Shown here piece after piece: positions 19,429-64,000 of a stretch of DNA of 64,000 nt (its first letter is position 1; every line of letters starts with the position of its first letter). The stretch lies in the NCBI GenBank assembly GCA_965229645.1, contig OZ245893.1, positions 448,323 to 512,322 on the forward strand. The letters run 5' to 3'. Position numbers and translations under genes: made by a program. Source of the stretch: Alphaproteobacteria bacterium. GTDB lineage: Bacteria > Pseudomonadota > Alphaproteobacteria > UBA7985. Under the pieces are notes generated by a model. It saw nothing but the letters and a program-made list of their open reading frames with translations, had not been told where the DNA came from and did no database searches.

Positions 19429-19508
19429 AGGTCATGCTCCTTTTAGTTCATCAATATCATGAAACGTCATGATAAATCAAGAAACGCCCTTTTCATTCCA
19501 CTGATACC

Positions 19509-19542: not shown

Positions 19543-19546
19543 TTGT

Positions 19547-19700
19547 GTCTAACGGCAGAAACGCTTCGCGTTTCGCCTCCGACGGGGCCTTCGCTTATAC
19601 CCCGAGGCGCTTTCTTAGCTCATCTCGGGGCCGCTACGGGGGCCGCAGTCGCGGCCCTTATACCAGCGATCTTTAGAGTCATTCTCATTCGCCGCTGGTA
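19547..19700 (-). repeat. Structured GC-rich interspersed element of about 150 bp, copy 2 (inverted relative to copy 1)
   Basis: The reverse complement aligns to 6461-6612 at about 88% identity, and the base changes preserve the hairpins. Confidence 0.6.
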
Positions 19701-19869
19701 TGACACATAAGACTGCCGACACCTGATAGGGGCTCGTCGTGCCGTTGGTGGACGCGGAAAATACTGAATTGAAAATTCAGTATTTTTGAAGGACTAGCGA
19801 CCAAGTGGGAGCGCAGCCTGCGTGGCGCAGACACGCAACTTCAAGGGTCGTTGCAAACGACCCTTGGTA

Positions 19870-34071: not shown

Positions 34072-35427
34072 GAAGGGGACGGTTTTCAAATCGCCAGGGT
34101 TGGGACCGTCGCCTGGGGTGAATCACTGCTCGAGGAGGGTGCAGGCGGCTTTCAAATAGCCGTGGTTGGGACCGGCTGTTGCTTCCATGACACCGTGGCA
34201 CTGGGTGCAGGCGGCTTTCAAATAGCCGTGGTTGGGACCGTCTGCGGGCACGGGCTCCCAGATCATCGAGGTGCAGGCGGCTTTCAAATAGCCGTGGTTG
34301 GGACCCGCAGACGGTTCGCTGTACGACGTCTACCGGGTGCAGGCGGCTTTCAAATAGCCGTGGTTGGGACCACAAGCACTTTCGATCCGAAATACAAACC
34401 AGGTGCAGGCGGCTTTCAAATAGCCGTGGTTGGGACCTATCCCAACGGGGATTATACGGGCGACTTTGGTGCAGGCGGCTTTCAAATAGCCGTGGTTGGG
34501 ACCGGTGGACCGTGAGGACAAGGGTAAGCAGACGGTGCAGGCGGCTTTCAAATAGCCGTGGTTGGGACCGAAATCCCAGGCGGTGATACAAATTCCGAAG
34601 GTGCAGGCGGCTTTCAAATAGCCGTGGTTGGGACCGCGGATCCTGTACGTTCACGATGTTGCCCCGGTGCAGGCGGCTTTCAAATAGCCGTGGTTGGGAC
34701 CGATCAACGGGCAAAACGTTTTTACGGTTGGGGTGCAGGCGGCTTTCAAATAGCCGTGGTTGGGACTGGCATCTTTCCTTGCTCATCTAGCTTCCTGGGT
34801 GCAGGCGGCTTTCAAATAGCCGTGGTTGGGACCTCAACTTCAAGCAATACTCTGGATTTGCAGGGTGCAGGCGGCTTTCAAATAGCCGTGGTTGGGACCC
34901 GGCTTCTGGTGTAATAGGAATTTTGCTCGGGTGCAGGCGGCTTTCAAATAGCCGTGGTTGGGACCCGATGCTGTAGGCGCCCTTCTGGTCGAGTAGGTGC
35001 AGGCGGCTTTCAAATAGCCGTGGTTGGGACCCCAAGGCTGCGTCGGCGTTCATGCCGAACAGGTGCAGGCGGCTTTCAAATAGCCGTGGTTGGGACCTTG
35101 AACGCGATCCAGATCAAACGCCGATGGGGTGCAGGCGGCTTTCAAATAGCCGTGGTTGGGACCGGGTCGCTCGGTCATGGCCAAGCAGCGCCAGGTGCAG
35201 GCGGCTTTCAAATAGCCGTGGTTGGGACCGCCCGAAGGCTCGCCGAGACGGGCAGGGTTGGTGCAGGCGGCTTTCAAATAGCCGTGGTTGGGACCCATTG
35301 TACCACATGCGGTACACGCCTGGGAGGTGCAGGCGGCTTTCAAATAGCCGTGGTTGGGACCGACTGTGACGGGCGACGTTGCAACCGACTTGGTGCAGGC
35401 GGCTTTCAAATAGCCGTGGTTGGGACC
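34072..35427 (-). CRISPR. CRISPR array 1 with 21 repeats of 36 nt (one degenerate at 34072-34107) and 20 spacers of uniform 30 nt
   Basis: The plus-strand repeat is GGTGCAGGCGGCTTTCAAATAGCCGTGGTTGGGACC, with an exact 66-bp period from 34138 to 35427. Repeat 10 ends in T. The degenerate repeat is at the cas13a-distal end. Confidence 0.95.
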
Positions 35428-35515: not shown

Positions 35516-38500
35516 TCAGTCATTTTTTCCTTGTCCATAAGCAAGTTTCTCTAGGGTTTTCAAGAACGTAGTGGAAACGCGGTCCACCTCGAACTTTGCC
35601 TCCGTAAAGGAAGCAAGATGCCAGACGGGAACTGCGCTCAGCCCACCTTCTTGAGGTTTATGGAGGCGGTGCTCATCGCAAGTTTCCCATCTGACTTCAA
35701 TACCTTCATCGAGCATGAGATCCTTGATTGCCTTTGATACGGCGTTGCGCAATTTGCGATCATAGGTCATGAGCCTGCGGACGTCGTTGATAAGGCTGGT
35801 GAGATTGAGCCCCGGCTTCAAGATTGTAAAGTGCGCGAAGGCGTTGCGAATTTTGGCCTGTTCCTCGCCAAAATACTTGTTGTAAAGAGATTGATTGTCT
35901 TGCGTGAGGTTTTCCAACACAAGTGGGCCGCGTTTGAAGCTGGGTCGGTCGCTCAATTTCTTGGCGAATTCATACAGATCCTGGTTTCCATGGCCCTGTT
36001 GACGTTGATAGAGCGCTAAGGCGACGAAAAGCGCATCCCGCTCCCACGTTGCGCTAAAATCGATGAGGCGAGAGACCAGTCGCATGAGCAAAATATGAAG
36101 GCGTGTCATGTCGCTGAGCCGCACCCGTTCCGCTAAGAACTTAAATTTGTTTAGCGCCTCCGTGATCTTTTGATACTCGGCGGTTTCTTCTGCATCCAGG
36201 TGATTTTTCTTCGACTTAACGATTTTATTGTGAAGATCGTGCTTCTTCTTCTCAAAACCCGCAACACGAGGTAAGTCACGCAAGTAGCTGGACACCTCAG
36301 CTTCGGAAATTTTGCTGGTCGCGTGCAGGTTTTGTAGGAGGGGCAAGGTGCCAAAGCGCAAAATTTGTCGTAAGCCAGTTTTGAGACCTTCAACGCGTCG
36401 TTCCTCTGCGGCCTTCGCACCAACGGACAAATCTTGCTGCGGGGCAAAGACCCGCTGGAAATGGCCCCGATCTTCAAAAAGGTCCGCCACGTCGGCCAAA
36501 CCGCCCGACGTTTCAAGGATGTTGACCATGTGCGCGCCAGCCATTTTTCCGTAGAGCAGACAAAGATCGCGCAGTTTGCGAGCGTAGTCGCTGTGCTCAT
36601 CGGGACGCGTCTCTTTGGTTTCCAGAACGCGGGCCTTGACGAACTGAGTCATGAGTCGGCTGGTATCCTGCACTGGCACCAAGTAGAGAAACACGTAAAA
36701 CAAGGCCTCCCAATCTTCGAGATCTCGATCTAGACCAGCGTCTTCAAAGGCGGGGGGATGCGCGACATATGTTCGTTTCTCCAGTCGGCCGCGCGCGAGC
36801 CATTGGAAGGGTTTGCCTTGCGGCGACTCTAGGAATTGGGCGAAGAGCAGGGCGAAGAAATCACATTTCAAGTCCTCGATCGCGTGAGAGTTCTTTCGTG
36901 CTTTCTTTCTGTCGGCCACGTAGGTTCGATTCTGCCGCGTTTCGGCGGCGACAACTTGGGTCAGTTGATCGAACCATTCTTGGAGATTCTTGCCAGGATG
37001 CAGTTGCGGGACTTGGGTCAAGCGCGACTCAACTAGGTCCGCGAAGGGCCCCGTGTTGTTCATGGCCTTGGCACGCGCGGTCGCCTCTCTAATTACTTGG
37101 TCGGCCGCATCGGCGAACTTTGACGTGCCGTTGTTTTCTATCAGCCAAACCCGAAAGGCAGAATTGTAGATCAGTTGCAAAGCACCGAAATGACAGGTCG
37201 CCGCTTCGTCATTTTTTGTTACCGTACTTATCTTATCGGGGAACTGCGATCGGGTGTCGTCTTTTGGGAAATGGCCTTTAAGGTTGTGATTGCGATGCAG
37301 GATCCGCCCAAATCGAGGGATCAGCAAATCGCGATCGGGCTCGAGCAGTGAGGCCTTGAACAGGTCCTCAACCTCTCTATGGCCAGGAACAAACCACGGC
37401 ACCTTTAGGGCCATGATCACATCCTTAGATCGCTGCTTCAGGCCCCGCATGTCGGTTTCTAGCCGTGCGCGCGCGAAGGCGAGCAAGTCAGAAAAGCCCT
37501 CGACGTCGTTCCAATTCCCCGCAACTTCAAGTTTGTGAAGGCTGGCCTTGAGCTTCGCGGCGTCGCCAAAATGAAAGACTTGAGTGCGCAATCGCGCCGC
37601 CACCCTCAGTAGTGCGAACAACCGTTGCTTTGCCAGTTGCTCATCTTCGGTCGCAAAGACCGAGTCATCCCCGTGGGAGTCACCGCCAGCCTCGTTCAAA
37701 GGATCGCCAAAGACAAGTTTGGCCATGCGGTTATAGTGCGGCAAACCCACGAAACACTTCGTGGTCGCCTTTATTCCGACCTCATTCGAAAGAATGTCGT
37801 CGTCCACATAAGCCGTTTCAGGGCCGAAAATTTCACCTTTTGGATCGGCCCAGTATTTTAAGGTGCGGCTAGCTTGCGAAATGGCGGTGCGCCAGAATCG
37901 TTCGAAGGCTTCGGAGTGCTTAAGCGCCGTGAGCGCAGACGACGTTTTTAGGGCCTGCATGCAGGCGGGCATCTGCTCTGCCGAGTGCGCGCGTCGGGCC
38001 GCGTGGTAGATATTACGGCCTTCGCGGATCAAGGCGGTCATGGTGGCGTTGCCTTGCTTGCGGTTTAGGGCACGCACCAGCGACGCCATGTCGGCGGGCA
38101 AGCGATAGGAAAGCGGTGTGCGCGTGTTTTGGAGGTGCCGAGTGGACTTGCGTACCTTGTTGGCGTAGAATTTTTTGACCTGGTTGTGCAGGTCAAGCAA
38201 GTCGCGATCGGACGAAGTGAACTTTTGGCCTGGCTTTTTTAAGGGCGCAAAGTGGTCCGATAAGATCTTCCCAAAAAGTGTCGTGCCAACAGGCTCGTTC
38301 TGACTTTCGCGCCTGCGCACCTCTGAAAAAATATGGGCGGCTACGTTGGCGTACGTCCCTTGCTGATAGGCCTTAAGGCGCGGCTCGGACAGCTCCAAGC
38401 TCGGGCGCTCTGTGTTTTGGGCCGCGGTCCAAAGGTTGGAGGTCCTAATGCTATTGGCCCGGTGCCAAATCAATCCGTGACCAGATTTTTTTTGACCCGA

Positions 38501-39016
38501 GGCCGAGACTTTCGCGGTGAACAGGTGGGCGTCGATGTTTTGGGCAATCTGCTTGTAGTTGGGGTTTCCTTGCGCGTCTTGCGCCCAGAGGGCTGTCTTG
38601 AGGCGTCCATAAATTCGATCAGGCTGAGCGCCCGCAGGGGCCCTGTCCCTTAAGGCCCTCAAGTCCTCCTCGGCCGTTGGAAAGTCCGCGTAGGGATGCA
38701 GCTTCGCCCGCCAAAATTCGAACTTGGCGCCGACGTTCTTACGGCTGATAAGTTCCCACACGGCCTGGCCCAACTGCTCGCGCCGTTCGTAGCGCTCAAC
38801 AGACATGAGGCGCAGGTTCTTTTCTTTGGTGAGGACCTTGTCCAGAATTCCGATATATTGCCGCATCAGAATTTTGGCCTCTTTCGATATGAGGGTATGG
38901 AGGTCAGCGTCTCGGTTCTGCTCAGACACAGTGGGCCGCGTTACCTCGACGCGACGCTCCAATTTTGAACCGTCCCAATGCGTTTTACTGTTGCCGATTG
39001 ATGAGATGATTTTCAT
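35516..39016 (-). CDS. cas13a: Cas13a (C2c2), the type VI-A CRISPR RNA-guided RNase
   Basis: 1166 aa, flanked on both sides by CRISPR arrays. It has two R-x4-H HEPN motifs, RTQVFH at aa 476-481 and RNAFAH at aa 1057-1062, a placement that matches Cas13a. It is lower in GC than the flanking DNA. Confidence 0.85.
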   Translation of the reverse strand: MKIISSIGNSKTHWDGSKLERRVEVTRPTVSEQNRDADLHTLISKEAKILMRQYIGILDKVLTKEKNLRLMSVERYERREQLGQAVWELISRKNVGAKFEFWRAKLHPYADFPTAEEDLRALRDRAPAGAQPDRIYGRLKTALWAQDAQGNPNYKQIAQNIDAHLFTAKVSASGQKKSGHGLIWHRANSIRTSNLWTAAQNTERPSLELSEPRLKAYQQGTYANVAAHIFSEVRRRESQNEPVGTTLFGKILSDHFAPLKKPGQKFTSSDRDLLDLHNQVKKFYANKVRKSTRHLQNTRTPLSYRLPADMASLVRALNRKQGNATMTALIREGRNIYHAARRAHSAEQMPACMQALKTSSALTALKHSEAFERFWRTAISQASRTLKYWADPKGEIFGPETAYVDDDILSNEVGIKATTKCFVGLPHYNRMAKLVFGDPLNEAGGDSHGDDSVFATEDEQLAKQRLFALLRVAARLRTQVFHFGDAAKLKASLHKLEVAGNWNDVEGFSDLLAFARARLETDMRGLKQRSKDVIMALKVPWFVPGHREVEDLFKASLLEPDRDLLIPRFGRILHRNHNLKGHFPKDDTRSQFPDKISTVTKNDEAATCHFGALQLIYNSAFRVWLIENNGTSKFADAADQVIREATARAKAMNNTGPFADLVESRLTQVPQLHPGKNLQEWFDQLTQVVAAETRQNRTYVADRKKARKNSHAIEDLKCDFFALLFAQFLESPQGKPFQWLARGRLEKRTYVAHPPAFEDAGLDRDLEDWEALFYVFLYLVPVQDTSRLMTQFVKARVLETKETRPDEHSDYARKLRDLCLLYGKMAGAHMVNILETSGGLADVADLFEDRGHFQRVFAPQQDLSVGAKAAEERRVEGLKTGLRQILRFGTLPLLQNLHATSKISEAEVSSYLRDLPRVAGFEKKKHDLHNKIVKSKKNHLDAEETAEYQKITEALNKFKFLAERVRLSDMTRLHILLMRLVSRLIDFSATWERDALFVALALYQRQQGHGNQDLYEFAKKLSDRPSFKRGPLVLENLTQDNQSLYNKYFGEEQAKIRNAFAHFTILKPGLNLTSLINDVRRLMTYDRKLRNAVSKAIKDLMLDEGIEVRWETCDEHRLHKPQEGGLSAVPVWHLASFTEAKFEVDRVSTTFLKTLEKLAYGQGKND

Positions 39017-39166: not shown

Positions 39167-39894
39167 GGGTGTTACTGTAGCCGATGTTTGAACCGAGGTC
39201 GTCCTCGAGTCATCCCAAAGTTGGGGGTGTTGGCGGCTGTCACTGTAGCCGATGTTTTAACCCACGGACAGCTGAAAGAAGGAGGTACCTATCAAGGGTT
39301 TTGGCGGCTGTCACTGTAGCCGATGTTTTAACCCACGGACAGCTGAAAGAAGGAGGTACCTATCAAGGGTTTTGGCGGCTGTCACTGTAGCCGATGTTTT
39401 AACCCAGACCCCGAAAACGTCAATGTAGTTGAAGTCGGTGTTGGCGGCTGTCACTGTAGCCGATGTTTTAACCTCCTACAAAATTCCGGGGGGGAGTCTA
39501 ACTCTCACGGTGTTGGCGGCTGTCACTGTAGCCGATGTTTTAACCCAGTTCGATGGACTGGTGGGCGGATCCGCCAGGGTGTTGGCGGCTGTCACTGTAG
39601 CCGATGTTTTAACCGAAGGTTTTGTAGCCAGCTTTACCCCGTATAGTGGGTGTTGGCGGCTGTCACTGTAGCCGATGTTTTAACCGACGAGGAATACATC
39701 CTCGTCATGACACCCTGGTGTTGGCGGCTGTCACTGTAGCCGATGTTTTAACCAAAATAAGAAGGCTGACGTAAAAGTCAGACTTCGGTGTTGGCGGCTG
39801 TCACTGTAGCCGATGTTTTAACCTGGGCTACGGCTTGTTTGTGCCGCACAACGACGCGGTGTTGGCGGCTGTCACTGTAGCCGATGTTTTAACC
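39167..39894 (-). CRISPR. CRISPR array 2 with 11 repeats of 37 nt (one truncated terminal repeat and two G-to-T variants) and 10 spacers of 31-35 nt
   Basis: The plus-strand repeat is GGTGTTGGCGGCTGTCACTGTAGCCGATGTTTTAACC. Repeats 2 and 3 read GGTTTTGG…. Spacers 1 and 2 are identical. The truncated repeat (39167-39194) lies next to cas13a. Confidence 0.95.
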
Positions 39895-52517: not shown

Positions 52518-54012
52518 CGGGCAACTCGGACTTGCGCCGTTCGACGAACGCCCGCAACTCTTCATCGACGGCGGCGTCGATGGCAGGCGCCTCGTAGTCG
52601 TTCAGCAGTTGGTTCCAGCGCTCGAAGGCGCGCTGATACGTATCCTTGGCGCCGCGTTCTTCCCAGCTTTCGACATTCTCGGAATCCGACAGGGCGGGTT
52701 CGTAGAAGGCGGTCGTATAGTTGGCCATGGTGTGGCCCGAGCCCAAGAAGTGGCCCGCAGGTTCGACGTCGTCGTAGGCGGTCTTGCCCAGCCCATTGTC
52801 GGAAACGTCCAACCCGCCGAGCAGTTTTTGGTAGCCGCCCAGACGGTCGGCATCGATCACGAGCTTTTCATAGCCCGTACACAGCCCCCCTTCGAGCCAT
52901 CCGGCCGAGTGCAGCACAAAATTCGCGCCCGCCAGCGCCGTTGAGTGCATGGAATCGGCGCTCTCCGCCGCGGCCTGCGCGTCGGGAATTTTTGACGCGG
53001 TGAGGGACCCGCCGCAGCGTAACGGCAAGTTCAACCGACGCGCCAACTGCCCGATCACGTAGTTCGACAGCGTCGGTTCGGGCATGCCGAAGGTCGGCGC
53101 GCCCGACTTGAGCGACATGGACGACAGGAAGTTGCCCATGATGAAGGGCGCGCCGGGGCGCACGAGCTGCGAATAGGCGCCGCACACCATGGCCTCGGCC
53201 ACCGCTTGCGCGATGGAGGCCGCTGTGGTGACGGGCCCCATGGCACCCGACAGGATAAAGGGCACGACCACAATGCCTTGCCCGTTGCCGCAGTAGGTCT
53301 GGATCGCCTGGGTCACGACGCGGTCGACCAACAAGGGCGAGTTGGTATTGACATTGCCCATGATCACGCAGTTGTTCTCAAAGGTCTCGTTGCCGTGCAA
53401 AATGCGGGCCATATCGACGCTGTCCTGGGCGCGCGACTGCTCGGTAATGGCGCCCAAACCAGGCTTGTCGCTGTAGCGCATATGCAGGTACAACATGTCC
53501 AAGTGTCGCTTGGAAACGGGAACATCGCAGGGTTCGACGATCACCAGGCCCGTATGGTGCAAGCTGTCGAGCGACTGGGCGATCTTCACCAGTTTCTCAT
53601 GGTCCTCCATGGTGCCGTAGCGCCGCCCCTTTTCCAAGTCTCGGCAAAAGGGCGGGCCGTAGATGGGGGCGAAGACCTGGTTGGTGCCACCGATGGTCAC
53701 GGTCTTGGCGGGATTGCGCGCCACTTGTTGGAATTGCGACGGCGCGGTTTTTAGGAGTTCGCGGATATGGGCCGCGTCGGCAACGACACGCGTGTCCTTG
53801 ACCTGCGCCCCCGCCGCGCGCCAGTGGTCCAATGATCGGGGATCATCGCGAAATTCTAGGCCAACATTTTCGATCAGCCAGTCGGCCTGTTGCTCAATTT
53901 TGACCAAACTCTCTTCGTCCAAGGCGTCGAAATAGGGCAAGCGCCGCTGGATGAAGGCAGGCGCGGCTTGCGCGGCGGGGCGGGCGGCGGAAGCGCGGGA
54001 GCGTCGTGCCAT
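52504..54012 (-). CDS. Trimethylamine methyltransferase (MttB) superfamily protein, non-pyrrolysine, glycine-betaine methyltransferase-like
   Basis: 502 aa with no internal stop, MttB-like throughout. Confidence 0.85.
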   Translation of the reverse strand: MARRSRASAARPAAQAAPAFIQRRLPYFDALDEESLVKIEQQADWLIENVGLEFRDDPRSLDHWRAAGAQVKDTRVVADAAHIRELLKTAPSQFQQVARNPAKTVTIGGTNQVFAPIYGPPFCRDLEKGRRYGTMEDHEKLVKIAQSLDSLHHTGLVIVEPCDVPVSKRHLDMLYLHMRYSDKPGLGAITEQSRAQDSVDMARILHGNETFENNCVIMGNVNTNSPLLVDRVVTQAIQTYCGNGQGIVVVPFILSGAMGPVTTAASIAQAVAEAMVCGAYSQLVRPGAPFIMGNFLSSMSLKSGAPTFGMPEPTLSNYVIGQLARRLNLPLRCGGSLTASKIPDAQAAAESADSMHSTALAGANFVLHSAGWLEGGLCTGYEKLVIDADRLGGYQKLLGGLDVSDNGLGKTAYDDVEPAGHFLGSGHTMANYTTAFYEPALSDSENVESWEERGAKDTYQRAFERWNQLLNDYEAPAIDAAVDEELRAFVERRKSELPDAWY

Positions 54013-54111
54013 GGCGGATCCTTGAGGGTTGTCTGGGCTCGGTCCCTTTTAGTCGCTCGACAAAGTCGGGGAAACCTTGAAAATTTCTTGGGGTTTGCAT
54101 AAGCCAAATTT

Positions 54112-54990
54112 ATGCAAAATCGCCGCAAACTGTTTAGGTGCATGAACCAGTTGCAGTCGTTTGAGGCCGCAGCCCGCCACAGTTCCTTCACCTTGGCGGC
54201 GCAAGACCTGGGCGTCACGCAACCTGCGATCAGCGCGGCGGTGCGACAACTGGAAGCCCAGCTCGGGATCTCCCTGTTTCACCGCACCCATCGGCGCATT
54301 CGCCTAACCCCCGAGGGCAAGGACCTTTACTTGGAGGCGCGGGCGGCCTTCGACGATCTGGAGCGGTGCGTGCAGCAGCTGGACCAGCACGGCCAAGGCC
54401 ACCATGTCACCCTGTCCTGTTCCACGGCCTTTGCCAATCACTGGTTTGTGCCGCGGCTAGGGGCGTTTCAGCAGGCGCACCCCCATATCGACCTGCGGGT
54501 GCAGACCACGGACCGCGATTTGGACCTGCGCGACGACAAGGCCGATCTGTGCGTGCGGCGGGGCCAAGGCCTTTGGCCTGGGTATGGCGTGGCGCGACTG
54601 GCTGAGGATCTCTTATTTCCCGTCGCCGCGCCAGGGTACGCGCGGCAGCAGGAGGCGTGGATGCACCAGCGCTTGATCCATTTGGAGGAACCCTATCGAC
54701 CGCGCCCTGGCTGGGGCGATTTCTTTCGCGCCGTTGGGCTGCCCGTGCCCACGGCCTTGGGCTTGCGCCTCAACGACTATGCGCTCGTGATCCAAACCGC
54801 CATGGCAGGGCAGGGGATCGCGCTGGGGTGGTCGCACATCGTCGCCGCCCCCATGGCCCAAGGTTTATTGGTGCAGGTGGGCGATAAGAAGTGGCGCACG
54901 GGCCTCAGCCACGACCTGATCTGGCCGCTCAGCGCGCCAGACCGCCCGCACGTTCATGAGGTGCGGGAATGGATGTTGCAGCAAGGCTGA
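54112..54990 (+). CDS. LysR-family transcriptional regulator
   Basis: N-terminal HTH LQSFEAAARHSSFTLAAQDLGVTQPAISAAVRQLE. Confidence 0.85.
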   Translation: MQNRRKLFRCMNQLQSFEAAARHSSFTLAAQDLGVTQPAISAAVRQLEAQLGISLFHRTHRRIRLTPEGKDLYLEARAAFDDLERCVQQLDQHGQGHHVTLSCSTAFANHWFVPRLGAFQQAHPHIDLRVQTTDRDLDLRDDKADLCVRRGQGLWPGYGVARLAEDLLFPVAAPGYARQQEAWMHQRLIHLEEPYRPRPGWGDFFRAVGLPVPTALGLRLNDYALVIQTAMAGQGIALGWSHIVAAPMAQGLLVQVGDKKWRTGLSHDLIWPLSAPDRPHVHEVREWMLQQG

Positions 54991-55080
54991 GGTGACGGTG
55001 TTCCAGGGTCTCGACATCCCCTAGCGATGCCATGCAGCCTTTCGTCACGGCGTTCCGCTTCAAGCGGCGCGCAAGGTCCC

Positions 55081-55491
55081 TTAGCCGCCGCTCGCAGCCG
55101 TGCCCGCGCTGACCAAATCGCCGTCGCCGACGACGAAGAGGCGGTAGTAACTGCCGAAGGGTCCCCATTGATAAACCTCGCCGGTTCGTCGATCGCGTCG
55201 GAAGTCCCAGCAGAACCAGCTTCCCGCATCTTCACCTTCATAGGTATAGCAAACATGACCGTTTTTTATGTGGTAGAGGCCCCTGTTTAGGAGGTCTCCT
55301 TCGTGCCAAATCGCCGCTCCTTCGGCGCTATGGTATTCGTAACTTTCGGCAATTTCCCAGTCGTGGGCACCGATGGTTTTTCCTGCTAAAAAGGCCGCAA
55401 TTTCCTTGTCCGTCATGGGGTCCTGGTTCAACTGCGCCGTCGCTGCACCGCCCCATAGGATCAGGACAAGACCGAGACGCAAGACAGGCAT
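55081..55491 (-). CDS. Secreted hypothetical protein
   Basis: Signal peptide MPVLRLGLVLILWGGAATAQ, about 136 aa. Confidence 0.5.
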   Translation of the reverse strand: MPVLRLGLVLILWGGAATAQLNQDPMTDKEIAAFLAGKTIGAHDWEIAESYEYHSAEGAAIWHEGDLLNRGLYHIKNGHVCYTYEGEDAGSWFCWDFRRDRRTGEVYQWGPFGSYYRLFVVGDGDLVSAGTAASGG

Positions 55492-55574
55492 GCCCGTCCC
55501 TTGCCGCAATTTTTGGGAACGATCAAGATTTGCACCATCTCGACAGGCAGGCTTTAGAAAGATAAGCGCCCCTC

Positions 55575-56789
55575 ATGAGTTCTGCCTTGCCCCCGCACAG
55601 CAAACCCGACTTGGCTGACTTCGATTGGGCCGATCCGCTGAAGTTGACGGCGAGTTTGAGCGCGGAGGAACAGGCCCTCCAAGAGGCGACGGCGGCCTTT
55701 GCGGCGGAAAAGTTGGCGCCGCGCGTGACCGCGGCCTTCGCGAACGAAACGGTGGACCCTGACATTTTTGCGGAGATGGGGGCCATGGGACTGCTCGGCA
55801 CCACCATCCCCGAAGCCTACGGCGGGCTCGGCGGGTCCTACGTCTCCTACGGGTTGGTCGCACGGGAGATTGAGCGCGTCGATAGCGGCTATCGTTCGAT
55901 GATGTCGGTGCAATCCTCACTCGTCATGTACCCAATCTTTGCCTATGGGTCGCAGGCGCAACGGCAGAAGTACCTGCCCAAGCTCGCGCGTGGGGAATGG
56001 ATCGGATGCTTTGGTTTGACCGAACCTGGGGCTGGGTCGGACCCTGCGGGGATGGCCACCCGCGCGGAGAAAACAGATTCGGGCTATCGCTTGCACGGGT
56101 CAAAGATGTGGATTTCCAATTCCCCTATCGCCGATGTGTTCGTGGTTTGGGCCAAATCCGACGCCCATGGCGGCAGCATCAAGGGCTTCGTCCTCGACAA
56201 GGGGTTGGCGGGGCTCAGCGCGCCGAAGATCGCGGGCAAGCTATCCTTGCGCGCCTCGGTAACGGGCGAGATCGTGCTCGACGGCGTTGAGGTGGGGGAG
56301 GACGCCTTGCTCGCCAACGTAGCTGGCCTCAAAGGACCGTTTGGGTGCTTGAACCGCGCGCGCTACGGCATCGCTTGGGGCGTCATGGGCGCGGCCGAGG
56401 CGTGCTGGCATACGGCGCGGCAATACACCCTGGACCGTCATCAATTCGGGAAACCTTTAGCGCAGACCCAGCTCGTGCAGCGCAAGTTGGCCGACATGCA
56501 AACCCAGATCGCCTACGGCCTGCAAGCAGCCTTACGCGTTGGGCGCTTGATGGACGAGGCGCAGGCGGCTCCGGAGATGATTTCCCTGATCAAGCGCCAG
56601 AACTGCGGCCAGGCCTTGGCCGTGGCGCGGGAAGCACGCGACATGCTCGGCGGCAATGGCATCAGCCAGGACTTCCCGATTTTCCGCCACATGGTCAACC
56701 TCGAGACGGTCAATACTTACGAGGGCACGCACGATGTCCATGCCCTGATCCTAGGGCGGGCGCAGACGGGTTTGCAGGCCTTCTTCTAA
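55575..56789 (+). CDS. Glutaryl-CoA dehydrogenase-like acyl-CoA dehydrogenase
   Basis: 404 aa with an acyl-CoA dehydrogenase fold and a GcdH-like N-terminus. Confidence 0.85.
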
Positions 56790-56799
56790 GTTCTGACGG

Positions 56800-58032
56800 A
56801 TGTTTCATCTGGACCGCGTTGTTGCCGAGGGGCTTTGTACGGGCTGCGGCCTGTGCGCGGGCATCAGCGATCAGATCGACATGCACGTGGCCAACAGCGG
56901 CTATGAGCGCCCAGTTGCCAGCGATCAGCCGCTTCCGACCGCGCTGCAAACCGTGCTGGCCGATGCGTGCCCTGGGGTTCATGTGCGCGGGCTGGATACC
57001 GACACCATTGCCGCTGCACCCCACCACGATGCGGTCTGGGGACCCTACGAGCGTCTGGTCAAGGCCCATGCTAGCGATCCCGAGGTGCGCCATCGCGCCT
57101 CGACGGGCGGGGTTCTGACCGCCTTGGCGCAGTACCTGCTCGCGAGTGGGCGGGCGGCGTTCATTTTGCACGTTCGCGCTGGGGGGCGCGATCCTAGTTT
57201 TGGTCAAATGCACCTATCAACCGACCCCAAGCAGGTCCTCGACGGCGCAGGGTCGCGCTATGGCCCCGCGGCCCCCTTGGAGCGCATCGATCAAGTCCTC
57301 GACCGTGGTCAACCCTTCGCGTTCGTCGGCAAGCCCTGCGATATTTCGGCTCTGCGCGCCCTGGGCGACCACGACGCCCGCGTCGGGGAGTTGGTTGTGG
57401 CCTATCTGACCATGGTCTGCGGCGGGTACGGCCCGCCCCAATCGACCCATGCCTTCTTCGAACGCCTCGGAACCCATCGCGATCAGGTCGCCCAGGTACG
57501 CTACCGTGGCTACGGCTGCCCTGGGGCAACGCGGGTGCAAACCCACGAAGGCGAGGTTTTTGAGGCCAGCTATGAGGATTTTTGGGGAACCGATTCCAGC
57601 ATGTGGCAACTGCCCTGGCGCTGCAAAATTTGCCCCGACGGCATCGGCGACGGGGCAGACGTGGCCGCGGCGGACGACTGGCCTGGTGCAACGCCAGATA
57701 GGGAGGCGGCGCAGTCCGACCCTGGAACCAACGCCGTCATCGTCCGCACCCAGGTGGGCGCGGCGCTGATGCAGGCGGCGGAGGCGGCGGGATTTCTGAC
57801 GCTCGGTGCCGAGGTGACGCCTGCCTACATGACCTCGATCCAGCCGCATCAGATGCGCAAGAAATTCTCGGCCCTATCCCGTTGGCGGGGCTTGACCGAG
57901 GTTGGACGTCTGCAACCGCGGTCAACCAATTTGCGACTGGAAGACCTGACGGCACAGCTAAGCCGCGAACAAGCCGCCGAACAGATCGACGGCGTGAAGG
58001 TCCGCGTCGCGGCGGGTAGAGCGGTGGATTAG
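56800..58032 (+). CDS. FrhB-family (coenzyme F420 hydrogenase/dehydrogenase beta subunit-like) Fe-S flavoprotein
   Basis: N-terminal cysteine cluster [11 protein letters not shown], and FrhB-like length and motifs. Confidence 0.6.
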
Positions 58033-58296
58033 GGCCCAAGTCATGACTGGTGCCCAATCATGAACGCTATGTTGTCTTAGGAATCTCAGCATAAATCGCG
58101 CCCATACAACAGGGAAGTGAGGGGGTGGCAGATCAGGGACGAAAAGGATGTGCCCTTTATGGCTGGTATACGGGAGGTGTAGACGGCGTGTTGTGCAAGC
58201 GCCCTGGCTAGAACGCGCAGGGGCGGGATTTACCTTTGTCGGCAAGGGCGCTACTTAAGCGGGACCAGGTTCTATGAACGAAAGGGAGCCCTCCCC

Positions 58297-60114
58297 ATGC
58301 CCCACCATCCCAACCCTCTTCCTTACACTGCGCCGCTTCGCGATATGAAGTTTGCCTTGCGCGAGCTTTGGGACGGCGATTCGCTGCATTTGTTGCCAGG
58401 CCTGGAGGAGGCGACGCCCGACGTGATCGACGCGGTGTTGGAGGAAGGCGCGAAGTTTTGCGTTCAGGAGCTGCTGCCGATCAATCGCGATGGCGACGAA
58501 CTCGGCTGCACTTGGGACAACGGCGTGGTACGCACGCCGCCAGGGTTTAAAGCCGCCTACGACAAATTTTGCGACGGCGGCTGGCAGGGCCTGTCGGTAC
58601 CGCAGGCCCAGGGTGGGCAAGGCTTGCCCCATACGCTCGACCTGTTGTTCAACGAAATGGTGGTGTCCACCAATATGGCCTTTGGCATGTACCCTGGCCT
58701 GACCGCGGGCGCCATCAACGCGCTCATGGCCCATGCGCGCGAGGACTTGCGGCAGACCTACCTGCCAAAGATGGTGCAAGGGACTTGGTCGGGGACCATG
58801 TGCTTGACCGAACCGCACTGCGGCACGGACCTGGGCCTGATCCGCACCAAGGCCGAACCGCAGCCCGACGGCACCTACGCGGTGACGGGGCAGAAAATCT
58901 TCATTTCCGCAGGAGAGCATGACCTGAGCGAGAATATCGTCCACCTCGTGCTCGCCAAGCTGCCCGACGCGCCCCCAGGGGTCAAAGGCATTTCCCTGTT
59001 CCTGGTTCCGAAGTTCCTGCCCGATTCCGACGGCAGCCCTGGTGCTCGTAACGCCGTCCAGTGTCCCCGAATTGAGGAAAAGATGGGGATTCACGGCAAT
59101 GCTACGGCTGTTTTGGACTTCGATAAGGCCGTAGGCTTCCAGGTCGGGCAACCGCATAAGGGCCTTGAGGCCATGTTCGTCATGATGAACAGCGCGCGCT
59201 TGGGCGTTGGCATTCAAGGGCTCGGTATCGGGGAAGCAGCCTATCAGGCCGCCGTGGCTTACGCCAAAGACCGGCTGCAGATGCGCGCCCTCGGCGGCGC
59301 TAAGGCCCCCGAGAAGGCCGCCGACCCGATCCTGGTGCATCCCGATGTTCGGCGCATGCTCATGAAAATGAAAGCCCATGTGGAGGGCAATCGTGCGCTC
59401 TCGACCTGGGTCTGCCTGGCCCTAGACAAGTCGTTTCATGCCCCAACCGCTGAAGAACGACGCGCTAATGACGATCTGGTCCAACTCATGACCCCGATTG
59501 TGAAGGCCTACTTTACCGATACCGCGCTGGCCTCGGCTTCAGATTCCGTCCAGGTCTTGGGCGGCCATGGCTACATACGCGAATGGGGGCGGGAGCAGTT
59601 GTTGCGCGATGCCAAAATCGCCCAGATTTACGAGGGCACCAACGGCATTCAGGCGCTCGATCTGGTCGGCAGGAAGCTCAGCGCGCACTTTGGCCGCTAC
59701 CTTAGGGCCTTCTTTCATCCCGTCGCCGAGTTTATCGAGGCAGAGCAGCAGACTCCTGAACTTAAGGCCTACGTTCCCGAACTCGCCAAGGCCTTTGCCA
59801 TGCTCCAAGAAACAACGCAGTTTATCCTTATGAACGGCGCGCGCGACCCCGAAGAGGCAGGCGCGGCCGCGAGCGACTACTTGCGCTTGTTCGCGCTCAC
59901 CGCGCTCGCGTACCTTTGGGCCAAGACCGTCAAAGTCGCCGCCGCCGAGCCAGACGGCCCCGATGCGGCCTTTTACAAGGGCAAAATCATGACGGCGCAG
60001 TTCTTTTATCGGCGCATCCTCCCCGAAGTTTCAGCTTTGAGGAAGATGGTGCTGGCGGGCAAAGAAACGCTCATGCAGATGCCCGAGGATTGGTTTGACC
60101 TTGAAGCGGCTTAA
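58297..60114 (+). CDS. Long-chain acyl-CoA dehydrogenase (FadE-like, with a C-terminal extension)
   Basis: 605 aa, with acyl-CoA dehydrogenase motifs and a long C-terminal domain. Confidence 0.85.
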   Translation: MPHHPNPLPYTAPLRDMKFALRELWDGDSLHLLPGLEEATPDVIDAVLEEGAKFCVQELLPINRDGDELGCTWDNGVVRTPPGFKAAYDKFCDGGWQGLSVPQAQGGQGLPHTLDLLFNEMVVSTNMAFGMYPGLTAGAINALMAHAREDLRQTYLPKMVQGTWSGTMCLTEPHCGTDLGLIRTKAEPQPDGTYAVTGQKIFISAGEHDLSENIVHLVLAKLPDAPPGVKGISLFLVPKFLPDSDGSPGARNAVQCPRIEEKMGIHGNATAVLDFDKAVGFQVGQPHKGLEAMFVMMNSARLGVGIQGLGIGEAAYQAAVAYAKDRLQMRALGGAKAPEKAADPILVHPDVRRMLMKMKAHVEGNRALSTWVCLALDKSFHAPTAEERRANDDLVQLMTPIVKAYFTDTALASASDSVQVLGGHGYIREWGREQLLRDAKIAQIYEGTNGIQALDLVGRKLSAHFGRYLRAFFHPVAEFIEAEQQTPELKAYVPELAKAFAMLQETTQFILMNGARDPEEAGAAASDYLRLFALTALAYLWAKTVKVAAAEPDGPDAAFYKGKIMTAQFFYRRILPEVSALRKMVLAGKETLMQMPEDWFDLEAA

Positions 60115-60217
60115 AGCGGAGTCCATGTCGATTGCAACAATCGACGCTGGGAACATCTGCGCCAGCAGGTCAGTCATCGTTTCCGCTGGTATATGGATGG
60201 AGTTCTGCGCAGGGACG

Positions 60218-60301
60218 TGGTGGAGGGGACTGGATTCGAACCAGTGTACCCGAAGGACCGGATTTACAGTCCGGCGCATTTAACCGCTCTGCCACCCCTC
60301 C
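60218..60301 (-). tRNA. tRNA-Tyr (GTA)
   Basis: The reverse complement GGAGGGGTGGCAGAGCGGTTAAATGCGCCGGACTGTAAATCCGG…GTTCGAATCC…CCACCA folds as a cloverleaf with a long variable arm and a GTA anticodon. Confidence 0.85.
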
Positions 60302-60397
60302 ACGTGCTTTTGCATGGCTTTACCCCTGCTAGAGCGCCCTAAACGCAAAGACCCCAGCGAAGTCAAGGCTTGCCGTGGGCCATCGCGAAAATAGGTT

Positions 60398-61180
60398 GTG
60401 CGGGTGAGCCCGCGCAAAAACCCTGACCCGCGTCTTTATCTTTACGGACTTCACGCCGTTCGGGCGGCCCTCGCGAATCCGCACAGAAAGATCCTGAACC
60501 TTTTGGTGGCTTTGCCGCCCGATCACGCCAATCGAAAAATTCTAGAACAAGATCTGGCACAACATCCCAACCCGCCCCACGTCAGCGAAACTGCGCGCGG
60601 GCATTTGGACAAGCTGGTCGGCAAAGAGGCGGTGCACCAGGGTCTGGCGGCGTTCGTCAAACCCCTGGCCAATCTGGATCCGCGCGCGTTTTTGCGGGCG
60701 CGGACAGAGGCTTTGCCCGCCGTCGCGATCCTCGATCAAGTGACCGACCCGCACAATATCGGCGCCGTGCTTCGTTCCGCCGCCGCCTTCGGGATCGGCG
60801 CCCTTATGACGCCCGCGCGCCATACCCCGAGCGAATCTGGTCTGATCGCGCGGATCGCCAGTGGCGGCCTCGAGGTTGTGCCTTGGCTGCGCGTGCGCAA
60901 CTTGGCCGACGCGTGTTTGGTCTTGCAAGAGTTTGGCTACCGCCTTTCTGGCTTGGCAAGCGATGGGCCGGGCTTGGTCCAGGCGTCCGCCTTCGCCGAT
61001 CCTGCGCCCCAAGCTCTGATCTTCGGGGCCGAAGGGGAGGGGATGCGCCAGCGGACCCGCAGTCTGTGCGACCAAGTGCTGCGCCTGCCGACCCGCTCGC
61101 CCGTTTCGGACCTGAACGTTTCCAACGCTGCCGCCGTGACGTTTTTTGCGCTGCAGCAGGCCTGGGTCGCCGCGGAATGA
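60398..61180 (+). CDS. TrmH/SpoU-family rRNA 2'-O-methyltransferase (RlmB-like)
   Basis: LYGLHAVRAAL and the SPOUT motif DQVTDPHNIGAVLRSAAAFG. Confidence 0.85.
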   Translation: MRVSPRKNPDPRLYLYGLHAVRAALANPHRKILNLLVALPPDHANRKILEQDLAQHPNPPHVSETARGHLDKLVGKEAVHQGLAAFVKPLANLDPRAFLRARTEALPAVAILDQVTDPHNIGAVLRSAAAFGIGALMTPARHTPSESGLIARIASGGLEVVPWLRVRNLADACLVLQEFGYRLSGLASDGPGLVQASAFADPAPQALIFGAEGEGMRQRTRSLCDQVLRLPTRSPVSDLNVSNAAAVTFFALQQAWVAAE

Positions 61181-61220
61181 GCCTTGCTTTGACCACCGAG
61201 AGTGCCTAGGGCAGCCCCGC

Positions 61221-61311
61221 TGGTGAGATGGCCGAGTGGCTTAAGGCGCACGCCTGGAACGCGTGTATAGGGGAAACTCTATCGTGGGTTCGAATCCCAC
61301 TCTCACCGCCA
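61221..61311 (+). tRNA. tRNA-Ser (GGA)
   Basis: GGTGAGA acceptor stem pairing with TCTCACC-G-CCA, a long variable arm, a TΨC arm GGTTCGAATCC and the anticodon loop CTGGAAC. Confidence 0.85.
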
Positions 61312-61422
61312 TCGAGGTAAAGCGCCCATTCAAGCGCGAAGTACCCTTTATGGGGGTGACGGGTCAGAGACGTGAGGACACCCAGTTCGGTGCAAATCAG
61401 GAGGGGAACCAAGAACGATAGT

Positions 61423-61647
61423 ATGAGTCTTGGCGCTGACCTATTTGTGGGTACCGCGTGGACTTTTGCCAGTCTGAATTTTGATGGCCAGCTCGATTCT
61501 CCTTTCATTAAGGAATCTGCTTCCAAAGTTTTGGAAATCCCATTCGGCAGTGTGGGGCAGATAAAGTTGGTCAACATATTCTGCTGGCTGAATGAGTATG
61601 CAGTATCTGGCGACGGAACAGAAAACCAACTAAAAACAACGCCTTAG
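61423..61647 (+). CDS. Small hypothetical protein at the start of the tRNA-Ser island
   Basis: A 74-aa ORF ending 11 bp before the GmrSD start. It has no motif, so confidence is low. Confidence 0.3.
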   Translation: MSLGADLFVGTAWTFASLNFDGQLDSPFIKESASKVLEIPFGSVGQIKLVNIFCWLNEYAVSGDGTENQLKTTP

Positions 61648-61658
61648 GAGAAATAGTT

Positions 61659-64000
61659 ATGGACGAACCAAAATCATTAGATAGCCTATTTAGAGAAAAG
61701 ATATTCAGGATTCCTGATTATCAAAGGGGTTATGCTTGGCAAAAAAGCCAGCTCAAGGATTTTTGGGAAGACCTCATCAACCTGTCTGGTGACCGCTCGC
61801 ATTATACTGGCGTTCTTACCCTGAAAGAAGTCGGCTCAAAAGAAGTCGCGGAAGCGGATAATGAATTTTGGCTGATAGATGATCATTCATACAGGATATA
61901 TCATGTCGTTGATGGCCAGCAACGCCTTACAACATTCGTGGTGTTCTTGCAGGCATTTATTGGCTTTGTGAAGAATCTAGACGGTAATGCAGATAAATCT
62001 GATCATGAAATATATATCACTGATAGCCTCAACTTAGAGGCCATTGTCAATAAATATTTATTCAAAACCAAACCTACTGGTGACCAGTATCGGACATATA
62101 AGTTTGGTTACACTGTCGACAATCCAAGTTACGAGTATCTTCGACACAAAATTTTCAACGAAGGCGGAACACCATCCATTGAAGAGACCTTTTACACCCT
62201 GAACTTGCGCAACGCGAGGCACTATTTTTGTGAACAGTTGAGAGAACTCCATGCCCACGCCCGAATGACTGGCCTTCAAGAAATATACAAAAAATTGACC
62301 AAGCGCTTTCTGTTTAATGAGTATGTCATCAAGGACGAATTTGATGTATTTGTTGCTTTTGAAACAATGAACAATCGAGGAAAGCGTCTTTCTGACTTGG
62401 AACTTCTTAAAAATCGCCTCATTTATCTGACAACACTATATACCGATGAAGAACTTGACGCCGCTGAACGCAAAAGCCTTAGAGGCGCAATAAACGGGGC
62501 TTGGAAAGAAGTATATTATCAATTGGGTAGAAATGACAAGCGCCCACTAAATGATGATGACTTTCTAAGAGCTCATTGGATTATGTATTTTCAATACTCT
62601 CGAAAAAAGGGAAATGATTACATAAGATTCCTGCTTGATGAACAGTTCTCCCCGCAGAAGATTCATGAAAAAATTGAACGTGAAGTAATGCTTGAAATGC
62701 CCGAGGAGCAACTTACCGATTCCGAGATAGATAATGCGAGTAGAGATGATGTCACTCCAGTTTATGTCACGAATTCAGAGGATGATTTCATAGATTTTGT
62801 GAACGCCAATACCAAGGTTGGCGCAGCAGGTAAGGGTTACATGCAGGCTATTCGAGGTCTAGAAGAAATGATCGGGGAGCCGATTTTTAACTTGCGCTCT
62901 TTGGATCAACTGAAGGTGTTAAAAATGCGACTCGCTAACAATGGCGATCTTCACGATTTTAATGTGAGGACGAATAATAGGGCGACCGGTGCAGCGATTG
63001 GCAAGCTAATCGAATTTTGCAGCAGGGAATTAAAAAGCACTGATGTGAAAGAAGTGGCTCATTTACAGCCAGTTGAGATCAGACAATACGTAGACGATTT
63101 AAAGGAATCAGCCGTTCATTGGTTCAATTCCTACTACCCCAATTTGGCTACTGGGCTATCAGATACAGAGAAAAACGCTATTGATCGATTAAACAGAATT
63201 GGTATGGGATATTTTCGTCCTCTCGTAATGTCGGTTTTTAAGAACGAGAGAAATTCTGAAGATAGAACAGATATTCTTGATCAAATTGAACGCTTTATCT
63301 TTATTGTTTTTCGGTTGTGTCAAACTCGTAGCAATTTCAAGGATAGCGAATTTTACAATGCATCACGCGAGCTCAATCGGGGTGAATTGACTCTTGATGA
63401 CATAAAGAAAAAGCTAGATGTGGCTGCATCATCATACTTCCATGATGACAACACGCTCAATTCAGATTACTTCTACAACTATCTTTACAAGAGATTCAAC
63501 AGCGAAGGTAAAAGCGGATACTATGGTTGGCATGGCCTGCGTTACTTCCTGTATGAATATGAGCTCAATCTGCTCTCCCAAAGCAGACAGAGAAAAGTGG
63601 CATGGGAAGATCTGCTCAAAACGCCAAGGGATAAGGTTTCCATTGAGCATGTGTTTCCGCAAGCTCCTACCAAAGATTGGAGAGAGGTGTTCGCTGGGGT
63701 GGATGAAGACGACTACCCGCTATATAGTGGATCCATAGGAAACTTATTGGTTTTGTCAATGTCTATAAATAGCTCACTTCAGAATGATGATTTTGATGAT
63801 AAGAAAAGACCGAAATTCAACGAATCAGGCGAGAAAATAAGAAATGGCTATTCAGACGGTTCTCACTCTGAGATTGAAGTTGCCCAGCATGATAAATGGA
63901 CACCTGCGCACTTAGAGGAGCGCGGCCTGCGCCTGTTGAACTTCATGGAAGATAGGTGGCGCATGAAGTTTAAGAGTGAGGAAGTTAAAAAGTCGCTGCT
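61659..64000 (+). CDS. GmrSD-like type IV restriction endonuclease (DUF262 ParB-like N-terminal plus DUF1524 His-Me finger), 3'-partial at the window edge
   Basis: A good RBS (AGGAG) precedes the ATG at 61659. The N-terminus has IPDYQRGYAW and DGQQRLTT (DUF262), and the C-terminal region has SIEHVFPQ (DUF1524). It lies in AT-rich DNA that looks about 40% G+C by eye. No in-frame stop occurs before the window end, and the ORF track omits it for that reason. Confidence 0.8.
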   Translation, partial: MDEPKSLDSLFREKIFRIPDYQRGYAWQKSQLKDFWEDLINLSGDRSHYTGVLTLKEVGSKEVAEADNEFWLIDDHSYRIYHVVDGQQRLTTFVVFLQAFIGFVKNLDGNADKSDHEIYITDSLNLEAIVNKYLFKTKPTGDQYRTYKFGYTVDNPSYEYLRHKIFNEGGTPSIEETFYTLNLRNARHYFCEQLRELHAHARMTGLQEIYKKLTKRFLFNEYVIKDEFDVFVAFETMNNRGKRLSDLELLKNRLIYLTTLYTDEELDAAERKSLRGAINGAWKEVYYQLGRNDKRPLNDDDFLRAHWIMYFQYSRKKGNDYIRFLLDEQFSPQKIHEKIEREVMLEMPEEQLTDSEIDNASRDDVTPVYVTNSEDDFIDFVNANTKVGAAGKGYMQAIRGLEEMIGEPIFNLRSLDQLKVLKMRLANNGDLHDFNVRTNNRATGAAIGKLIEFCSRELKSTDVKEVAHLQPVEIRQYVDDLKESAVHWFNSYYPNLATGLSDTEKNAIDRLNRIGMGYFRPLVMSVFKNERNSEDRTDILDQIERFIFIVFRLCQTRSNFKDSEFYNASRELNRGELTLDDIKKKLDVAASSYFHDDNTLNSDYFYNYLYKRFNSEGKSGYYGWHGLRYFLYEYELNLLSQSRQRKVAWEDLLKTPRDKVSIEHVFPQAPTKDWREVFAGVDEDDYPLYSGSIGNLLVLSMSINSSLQNDDFDDKKRPKFNESGEKIRNGYSDGSHSEIEVAQHDKWTPAHLEERGLRLLNFMEDRWRMKFKSEEVKKSL

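Follow-up and report, generated by a model that had tools for sequence, protein, structure and literature searches.

Immediately downstream of a tRNA-Ser(GGA) gene, the genome of an uncultured alphaproteobacterium (GenBank assembly GCA_965229645.1, contig OZ245893.1) carries a small islet of foreign DNA with a gene of the GmrSD superfamily. The islet begins near the end of the 64,000-nucleotide stretch that we analyzed (positions 448,323 to 512,322 of the contig), which is called the window here and to which coordinates refer unless another contig is named. Judged by its sequence, the protein is a confident GmrSD-superfamily candidate for single-gene defense. We favor, at a probability of roughly 60%, a stand-alone NTPase-nuclease directed against invading DNA, of which DNA with modified bases is the most probable target; it would hence be a type IV restriction enzyme. 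Its domains, motifs, and modeled fold are those of the superfamily, an empty site in a related genome marks the insertion, the gene is under purifying selection, and its homologs have neighborhoods of the defense type. NTPase and nuclease activity, an antiphage function, and, above all, dependence on modification would follow by analogy with characterized relatives. Public records label proteins of this family merely "DUF262 domain-containing protein," and the main value of the analysis is a correct annotation.

Domains, motifs, and fold of the protein

The gene starts with an ATG and is open at the end of the window, which holds the first 780 of its 792 codons and no stop. The remainder was read from a near-identical strain, L001, a 139-kb metagenome-assembled contig that is 99.4 to 99.6% identical to the window over 53955-64000 (window coordinate = L001 coordinate + 51658). 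In L001, the stop falls at window-equivalent position 64037, 37 nt and 12 codons beyond the window. The L001 protein (P0001, 792 amino acids) was reported as 100% identical to that of the window, and the two genes differ at 3 nt. The features of the gene are as follows.

61646-61650, plus strand: Shine-Dalgarno-like AGGAG, 8 nt before the ATG, read from the sequence
61659-64000, plus strand: GmrSD-superfamily gene, first 780 of 792 codons, ATG start, open at the window end
61686-62420, plus strand: DUF262/ParB-like NTPase domain, amino acids 10-254 (Pfam GmrSD_N, PF03235, E=5.7e-32)
62772-63053, plus strand: helical insert of about 94 amino acids in the acidic linker, amino acids 372-465 (from the alignment; 4 to 5 helices in the AlphaFold2 model, pLDDT 61-80)
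63501-63938, plus strand: DUF1524 His-Me-finger nuclease domain, amino acids 615-760 (Pfam GmrSD_C, PF07510, E=8.9e-16)

Both Pfam matches score well over the gathering scores. The GmrSD family is defined by a DGQQR NTPase motif together with an E/D-H-N-N His-Me motif (PMC4619093), and the protein has both. Its N-terminal domain contains DYQR at amino acids 20-23 and DGQQR at amino acids 85-89 (nucleotides 61911-61925), in a region that reads HVVDGQQRLTTFVVFL and fits (I/V)(I/V)DGQQRLTT. The C-terminal domain contains EHVFP at amino acids 663-667 (nucleotides 63645-63659), and E663-H664...N695...N704 make up the E/D-H-N-N motif. In an alignment of 115 sequences, the invariant positions are P19, Q22, and R23; D85, G86, Q87, Q88, and R89; F234, E235, N238, R240, and G241; and, in the C-terminal part, E663, H664, P667, G694, N695, and N704. 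Thus, a preliminary description made from the letters of the window alone was right to call a DUF262 (DGQQR) plus DUF1524 (EHVFP) protein, as Pfam finds both domains and both motifs are in place. It had also named missing catalytic residues as a way in which the call could fail, and the DGQQR and E-H-N-N residues are all present and invariant across the 115 homologs.

The modeled structure has the same architecture. An AlphaFold2 model built on the 115-sequence alignment reached a predicted local distance difference test score (pLDDT) of 88.4, mostly above 90 in the N-terminal domain, and a predicted template modeling score of 0.81. A model built from 33 close homologs had been set aside (pLDDT 60), and the larger alignment remedied the deficiency. 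The linker, residues 255 to 615 or thereabouts (about 360 amino acids), is nearly all helical in the model and falls within the range of the family, in which linkers are alpha-helical and usually 200 to 400 amino acids long (PMC4619093). A beta-beta-alpha element occupies residues 660-707. Domains, model, and Foldseek structure matches agree, and the GmrSD architecture claimed in the preliminary description is upheld. The insert of about 94 amino acids in the linker varies in copy number, as it occurs once in forms of about 790 amino acids, is missing from forms of about 700 amino acids, and is present in two to three copies in a 906-amino-acid homolog (P0023).

Read to its end, the 792-codon open reading frame (ORF) of P0001 is intact and contains all the catalytic residues that are invariant in the family, and the predicted ribosome-binding site is a good one. 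The ratio of nonsynonymous to synonymous change (dN/dS) is 0.04 to 0.14 against copies in other hosts, the mark of purifying selection.

Relatives, neighborhoods, and the possible target

How the protein might act can be proposed from its relatives. The N-terminal DUF262/ParB-like domain would bind and hydrolyze a nucleoside triphosphate through DGQQR and in doing so license or drive the enzyme, and the C-terminal DUF1524 domain (E663-H664...N695...N704) would nick or cleave the invading DNA. The helical linker of about 360 amino acids would join the two domains and probably mediate dimerization. The likeliest target would be phage DNA with noncanonical (modified) bases, as for GmrSD and BrxU, and such an enzyme would need no cognate methylase. 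No methylase was called beside the gene in the L001 islet. The label "type IV, modification-dependent" would come to the protein from its family, and by sequence and fold the protein is nearest to HEC-06 and DndI, not to GmrSD, the enzyme for glucosylated hydroxymethylcytosine.

HEC-06 was the best family in PADLOC (E=1.6e-49), with the "Orf5" models next. HEC-06 is a GmrSD-like "Hma-embedded candidate" that was validated experimentally as a defense system, and mutants in its DGQQR and EH motifs lose protection (bioRxiv 10.1101/2024.01.29.577857). Both proteins have the DUF262-linker-DUF1524 layout, DGQQR, and EHxxP (EHICP in HEC-06 and EHVFP here), and each is a single gene. HEC-06, however, is embedded in Hma (helicase-methylase-ATPase), whereas the gene of the window stands alone with only a helicase remnant of about 45 codons upstream. 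Relatives of the protein are embedded in other defense operons, as HEC-06 is, but only the more distant homologs. A 611-amino-acid protein from the same site in a sister strain, L167, described below, is a much better full-length match to HEC-06 and "Orf5" than is the protein of the window (E=1e-68 and 1.6e-90, respectively).

Among solved structures, Foldseek ranked DndI first (9jfl; E=2.9e-13, probability 1.0, TM score 0.47 on the target), at an identity of 14 to 15%, and BrxU second (7p9k; E=5.6e-4, probability 0.95), with no other significant match in the PDB. Sequence profiles against the PDB returned DndI (9jfl, E=5.4e-10), a second DUF262 protein (20yv), and SspE (E=1.6e-6), in that order. 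DndI and SspE (6JIV/7DRS) combine a DGQQR NTPase with an HNH nickase and sense phosphorothioate (PMC11662687). Like the protein here, they are DUF262-DUF1524 proteins with DGQQR, but the locus of the window has no dnd or ssp genes nearby. With the GmrSD/BrxU enzymes (Eco94GmrSD and EcoCT GmrSD; 7P9K), the protein shares the Pfam families, the motifs (I/V)(I/V)DGQQRLTT and E/D-H-N-N, and the range of the helical linker. BrxU gave neither a phmmer nor a profile match in the PDB sequence searches, the similarity being too low, and the PADLOC mREase_IV model matched weakly (E=1.3e-7). Matches in PHROGs were only to families of unknown function.

The protein belongs to a large, uncharacterized subfamily. 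A search of cluster representatives (clusters at 50% identity) matched 6,858 clusters with a cutoff of E<1e-3 and 683 with E<1e-30, and each of the full-length matches listed aligns in two stretches, at about amino acids 1-360 and 466-785. Homologs at 66 to 75% identity have HsdS as the upstream neighbor at 8 of 30 loci and an N6_N4 DNA methylase at 6 of 30; downstream, HsdR (HSDR_N/SWI2_SNF2/ResIII) is found at 6 of 28 loci, a UvrD-type helicase at 5 of 28, and an MmeI/Eco57I-type enzyme once. Operon-embedded examples are the loci L114, L119, L121, L123, L136, L139, and L147. Plasmids carry 33 copies, mostly in Acinetobacter at about 44% identity, and fifteen IMG/VR viral contigs carry homologs that are 53 to 71% identical. 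Six Streptococcus suis prophages also have copies, one of which, 48% identical, is annotated "RloF." The rlo name comes from Campylobacter. RloF-type genes sit in type I restriction-modification loci, and metagenomic homologs are commonly found between hsdS and hsdR, whereas the copy in the window lies outside any hsd locus, and a literature search on RloF yielded nothing relevant on function. Spread over plasmids, prophages, and restriction-modification operons, the homologs leave the typical footprint of a defense gene.

Several observations weigh against a modification-dependent defense gene of this kind or narrow what can be said of it. The HEC-06 match falls in two stretches, the best of which covers profile positions 17-291 of 569, or about 300 amino acids at the N terminus, and the HEC-06 models, at about 560 to 570 amino acids, are some 220 amino acids shorter than the 792-amino-acid protein. 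The nearest solved structure is that of a phosphorothioate-sensing protein, DndI, not of a modified-base enzyme. No NCBIfam model matches the protein, and a promoter scan returned no consensus promoter upstream of the gene. Moreover, everything said of sequence beyond position 64000 is taken from L001, not from the window's own genome. Finally, neither an integrase nor a significant attachment (att) repeat was found in the window strain to account for the insertion.

Might the trigger be something other than a modified base? A GmrSD-fold nuclease could respond to a phage protein, a DNA structure, or replication intermediates, or could work jointly with restriction-modification or helicase partners, as relatives embedded in operons may, and we regard this as the principal alternative, although an unlikely one. 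HEC-06, the closest PADLOC family, has no known substrate, and its phage range differs from that of BrxU (bioRxiv 10.1101/2024.01.29.577857). Homologs at 66 to 75% identity sit inside operons of the type I restriction-modification and methylase-helicase kinds, an arrangement suggestive of functional coupling, and a helicase-gene remnant lies directly upstream of the gene here. In the window and at three related loci introduced below (L084, L085, and L098), however, the gene is alone but for a decayed helicase fragment and yet is kept under purifying selection, so it evidently works by itself. Moreover, the relatives with defined substrates either cleave modified DNA (GmrSD and BrxU) or sense a DNA modification (SspE and DndI). 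A second, very unlikely alternative is an SspE/DndI-like effector that reads phosphorothioate as host "self" and nicks unmarked DNA, with the dnd or ssp genes that it needs encoded elsewhere. DndI is the best PDB match by profile and by fold, and its phosphorothioate-sensing tyrosine, Y25, aligns with Y21 of DYQR. That tyrosine is nearly invariant in the whole family alignment, however, and so does not discriminate for phosphorothioate sensing. The PADLOC SspE models match only the first 100 or so residues (about amino acids 13-127), and no Dnd or Ssp match was found by PADLOC in the 44 other ORFs of the window or in the flanks of L001, L084, L085, and L167. We disfavor phosphorothioate sensing because no Dnd/Ssp genes are nearby and because the cassette has reached unrelated hosts with one gene only, which would fit poorly with dependence on a multigene modification module.

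Alternatively, the gene might not be a working defense gene at all but a decaying passenger of a degraded island, or its ParB/HNH product might serve some other purpose, for example as a selfish or homing nuclease. Its surroundings are degraded: the helicase gene is a remnant, an integrase is lacking, the att core is degenerate, and relatives have an insertion sequence (IS) fragment. The promoter consensus is also missing. Nevertheless, we consider this highly improbable because the 792 codons are intact, the catalytic residues are invariant, and dN/dS is low; the ribosome-binding site also looks good, and HEC-06 is a validated defense relative.

The islet and its empty site

The segment that holds the gene is an insertion. 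A related genome (L082, a 1.44-Mb contig with an RlmB-like protein 89% identical to that here) has the order rlmB, tRNA-Ser(GGA), ftsB-like gene, and pdhA, and its tRNA-Ser is 100% identical to that of the window. Between this tRNA and the conserved stretch that precedes ftsB, L082 has only 140 bp, compared with 4,480 bp in L001. Homology between the two ends 5 nt past the tRNA (L001 9658; window 61316) and restarts at L001 14139. Because L082 is empty at an identical tRNA-Ser, the claim of the preliminary description that foreign DNA was inserted there is well founded. RlmB-like relatives at 40 to 47% identity, among the matches listed, share the tRNA-Tyr/rlmB arrangement but not tRNA-Ser/ftsB/pdhA and are therefore uninformative on the empty site. 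Looking up the flanking methyltransferase and acyl-CoA dehydrogenase by exact protein sequence gave no match, owing to differences in start codon or strain.

The islet is small. It runs from window 61317 to about 65796, as extrapolated from L001, with a G+C content of 0.41 to 0.50 against 0.63, and ends about 1.8 kb beyond the window. After the gene, L001 continues with about 500 bp of noncoding sequence, a 193-amino-acid ORF, an FtsB/DivIC-like gene, pdhA, and pdhB, and its G+C content is back to at least 0.6 by L001 14650. With 4,480 bp in L001 replacing 140 bp in L082, the insertion is an islet and not the opening part of a large island. The preliminary description had supposed that the window held only the beginning of an island and that further defense genes were likely downstream; instead, the gene closes 37 nt past the window, and all that follows in the L001 islet is the 193-amino-acid ORF, which has no notable defense-family match. 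A downstream boundary, for which that description had advised a search, does exist at about 65.8 kb (window-equivalent, L001 against L082). The search that it advised for an integrase came up empty, both among called genes and among ORFs of at least 40 amino acids in L001 9654-14138. The parts of the islet other than the gene itself, and its docking site, are as follows.

61222-61311, plus strand: tRNA-Ser(GGA), docking site of the islet (ARAGORN; Rfam tRNA model, 60 bits on the L001 copy)
61312-61520, no strand assigned: region A, 209 bp directly 3' of tRNA-Ser, G+C 0.52, 90.6% identity between L167 1-308 and L001 9554-9861
61523-61647, plus strand: decayed 3' end of a superfamily 1 (SF1; AAA_12-type) helicase gene, the left "handle" of the cassette (tblastn)
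L001 12884-13465 (window-equivalent about 64542-65123), strand not given: orf193, the 193-amino-acid ORF (ORF call)

The tRNA was correctly identified in the preliminary description but begins one base later than the start given there (61222 by ARAGORN, not 61221). Upstream of it, the G+C content of the window is 0.611 over 1-61221 and 0.634 over 40001-61221. Downstream, it is 0.517 over 61312-61520, 0.434 over 61523-61658, and 0.413 in the coding sequence of the GmrSD-like gene, and G+C at third codon positions is 0.424 in that gene against 0.749 in the neighboring acyl-CoA dehydrogenase gene. A fall to about 40%, as had been described, is therefore real, but it is stepwise over about 200 bp, not immediate. 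The helicase remnant is the end of a spurious ORF (61372-61647) and is 68 to 70% identical, by tblastn, to the C-terminal ends of an 86-amino-acid ORF in L084 and of the corresponding sequences in L098 and L085.

Pfam DUF6155 matches orf193 at 23.6 bits, short of the 27-bit cutoff, and the match to PADLOC PDC-M63A (E=0.003) is likewise subthreshold. The orf193 family is rare, with 13 database hits. It persists at the site in both L001 and L167, and an identical copy lies on a 3.25-Mb NCBI contig. We considered and rejected orf193 as a partner of the GmrSD-like gene, given its 13 relatives, its nondefense context in Piscirickettsia litoralis, where it lies among metabolic genes, and its failure to appear beside the gene in L084 and L085.

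Two further observations concern sequence around the islet. At window position 60170, between the acyl-CoA dehydrogenase gene and tRNA-Tyr(GTA) (60218-60301, minus strand, by ARAGORN), L001 is longer by 2.3 kb of IS/transposase fragments (DDE_Tnp_1 and DDE_3; L001 6219-8510). This block is absent from the window and is the single large difference between the two. Separately, a dispersed repeat of about 77 to 86 nt, 93 to 94% identical, lies beside the IS insertion in L001 (8430-8515), between ftsB and pdhA in L082 (11469-11545), and inside the islet in L167 (3216-3301). It looks like a small element of the miniature inverted-repeat transposable element or repetitive extragenic palindrome type.

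A recurring frame at tRNA-Ser genes and other features of the window

The gene travels with its edges. A nucleotide unit of about 2.7 kb is common to L001 (9865-12591), L084, L085, and L098 and consists of about 135 bp upstream, the gene, and a noncoding tail of about 210 bp. The encoded proteins are 84% (L084), 80% (L085), and 82% (L098) identical to that of the window, and the respective hosts have G+C contents of 0.46, 0.32, and 0.46. The cassette gene itself has a G+C content of 0.41 to 0.42 whatever the host (0.63, 0.46, or 0.32). L084 retains 86 codons of the helicase remnant. In L001, L084, L085, and L098, a tRNA-Ser gene (GGA or GCT) lies 0.35 to 1.6 kb upstream in the same orientation. 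Among the other 76 metagenomic homolog loci, L109 alone has a tRNA-Ser gene within 4 kb, and it lies downstream there; the 15 viral-contig (IMG/VR) loci have neither a tRNA-Ser neighbor nor the cassette frame. Altogether, frame and tRNA-Ser adjacency occur together at 5 of 5 loci (host G+C 0.32 to 0.63) and are absent from about 90 other homolog loci. The same cassette beside tRNA-Ser in hosts of such different G+C content hints at targeted spread without a resident integrase.

The sister strain L167 (ENA ERZ25074195, ctg51238, 1-7712), 98% identical to L001 over ftsB-pdhAB, has a different occupant at this site. In order, it has tRNA-Ser(GGA), region A, a 162-codon helicase remnant (Pfam AAA_12), a different GmrSD-family gene, and the common tail, followed by a 216-nt direct repeat, an IS fragment, a SoFic-like Fic gene (E=1.6e-45), an orf193 homolog (85% identical), and ftsB. 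Its GmrSD-family protein has 611 amino acids and is 24.5% identical to P0001. The window strain and L001 on the one hand and L167 on the other thus form a natural experiment, in that they carry different GmrSD-family alleles, without and with SoFic, respectively, and L082 is empty. The comparison reveals turnover of defense genes at a tRNA-Ser microhotspot, and the site behaves as a small defense hotspot.

The preliminary description had proposed to look for a repeated copy of the tRNA 3' end in direct orientation. An att-like one is found in the sister strain, and in the window strain, as represented by L001, none is significant. In L001, Smith-Waterman scores of 17 to 24 against a shuffle mean of 19 and maximum of 26 to 29 are nothing beyond chance. 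In L167, the 216-nt repeat starts from the tail end and comprises the final 8 nt of the tRNA (CACCGCCA) followed by region A, at 76% identity, with a Smith-Waterman score of 160 against a shuffle maximum of 26; this repeat after the tail is missing from L001. The frame tail in relatives ends in the tRNA-Ser 3' core CACCGCCA, and the tails of L084 and L085 end in ...ACACCGCCA. In L001, the tail reads ...ACACTGCCA and ends in CACTGCCA as against CACCGCCA in the tRNA. L098 has a direct repeat of 186 nt, 98.9% identical (7315-7500 and 10316-10501), that starts within the final 4 nt of tRNA-Ser(GCT), brackets the cassette, and runs into the contig end. It might reflect duplication of the att type, but a tandem copy, a circularized element, or misassembly could produce such a repeat as well.

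The tail was also considered as a decayed tRNA or structured RNA on account of its T-loop-like GGATTCGAA(C/T)C motifs, but neither ARAGORN nor Rfam (E<=1) returned anything. The form of the motif in the L167 tail, GGATTCGAATCC, reads the same on both strands and so cannot be assigned to either. A 17-nt inverted match to the T-arm of the tRNA was within chance.

The simplest reading, we infer, is that related elements docked successively at tRNA-Ser and that deletion followed. The window strain would then retain one cassette together with what is left, orf193 included, of an older element. In its tRNA 3' docking, foreign G+C content, and empty site in a relative, the islet resembles tRNA-associated islets and integrase-less att-flanked elements ("CIME"-like remnants), and the L167 direct repeats, which start in the tRNA 3' end, are a further point of resemblance. 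It differs in that no integrase is encoded anywhere in it (as read from L001) and in that the L167 repeat is no short core but takes in flanking sequence along with the tRNA end, 216 nt in all; in the window strain, this repeat is degenerate or deleted.

We speculate, and consider it rather doubtful, that the frame is an integrase-less, tRNA-Ser-targeting defense cassette that moves between phyla and offers a constant site where one GmrSD-family gene can replace another. Proteins of three forms are seen, of 792, about 700, and 611 amino acids, the last only 24% identical. A satellite hotspot, or an integron cassette with a single gene, would be a rough parallel to such a cassette. The integrase-less frame that recurs at tRNA-Ser, the swap of a 24%-identical allele, and the copy-variable helical insert are mildly unusual.

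A second defense locus lies nearby. A 1166-amino-acid ORF at 35516-39016 on the minus strand is a Cas13a (PADLOC, E=2.8e-135) and lies 22.6 kb from the GmrSD-like gene, in keeping with the earlier statement that two antiphage loci fall within 25 kb. CRISPR-like arrays with different repeats flank it, at 34137-35427 (period 66, about 20 copies) and at 39225-39894 (period about 71). Pfam has no family that matches the Cas13a effector or the adjacent ORFs of 595 and 254 amino acids. The Cas13a block sits inside a region of lower G+C content, at about 28 to 40 kb, in which an IS transposase (29699-30799, minus strand) is also encoded. The two loci represent independent antiphage acquisitions in an otherwise housekeeping stretch of the genome.

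Two more dips in G+C content occur in the window, at 10001-11000 (0.49, overlapping an ORF at 10198-11388 on the minus strand) and at 19001-20000 (0.545). Among the 44 other ORFs, PADLOC also returned mad3 (two ORFs, best E=8e-30), mad8 (two), PDC-M32A (one), and AriA (one, E=1.9e-8), matches that may simply reflect generic ATPase or kinase-type domains.

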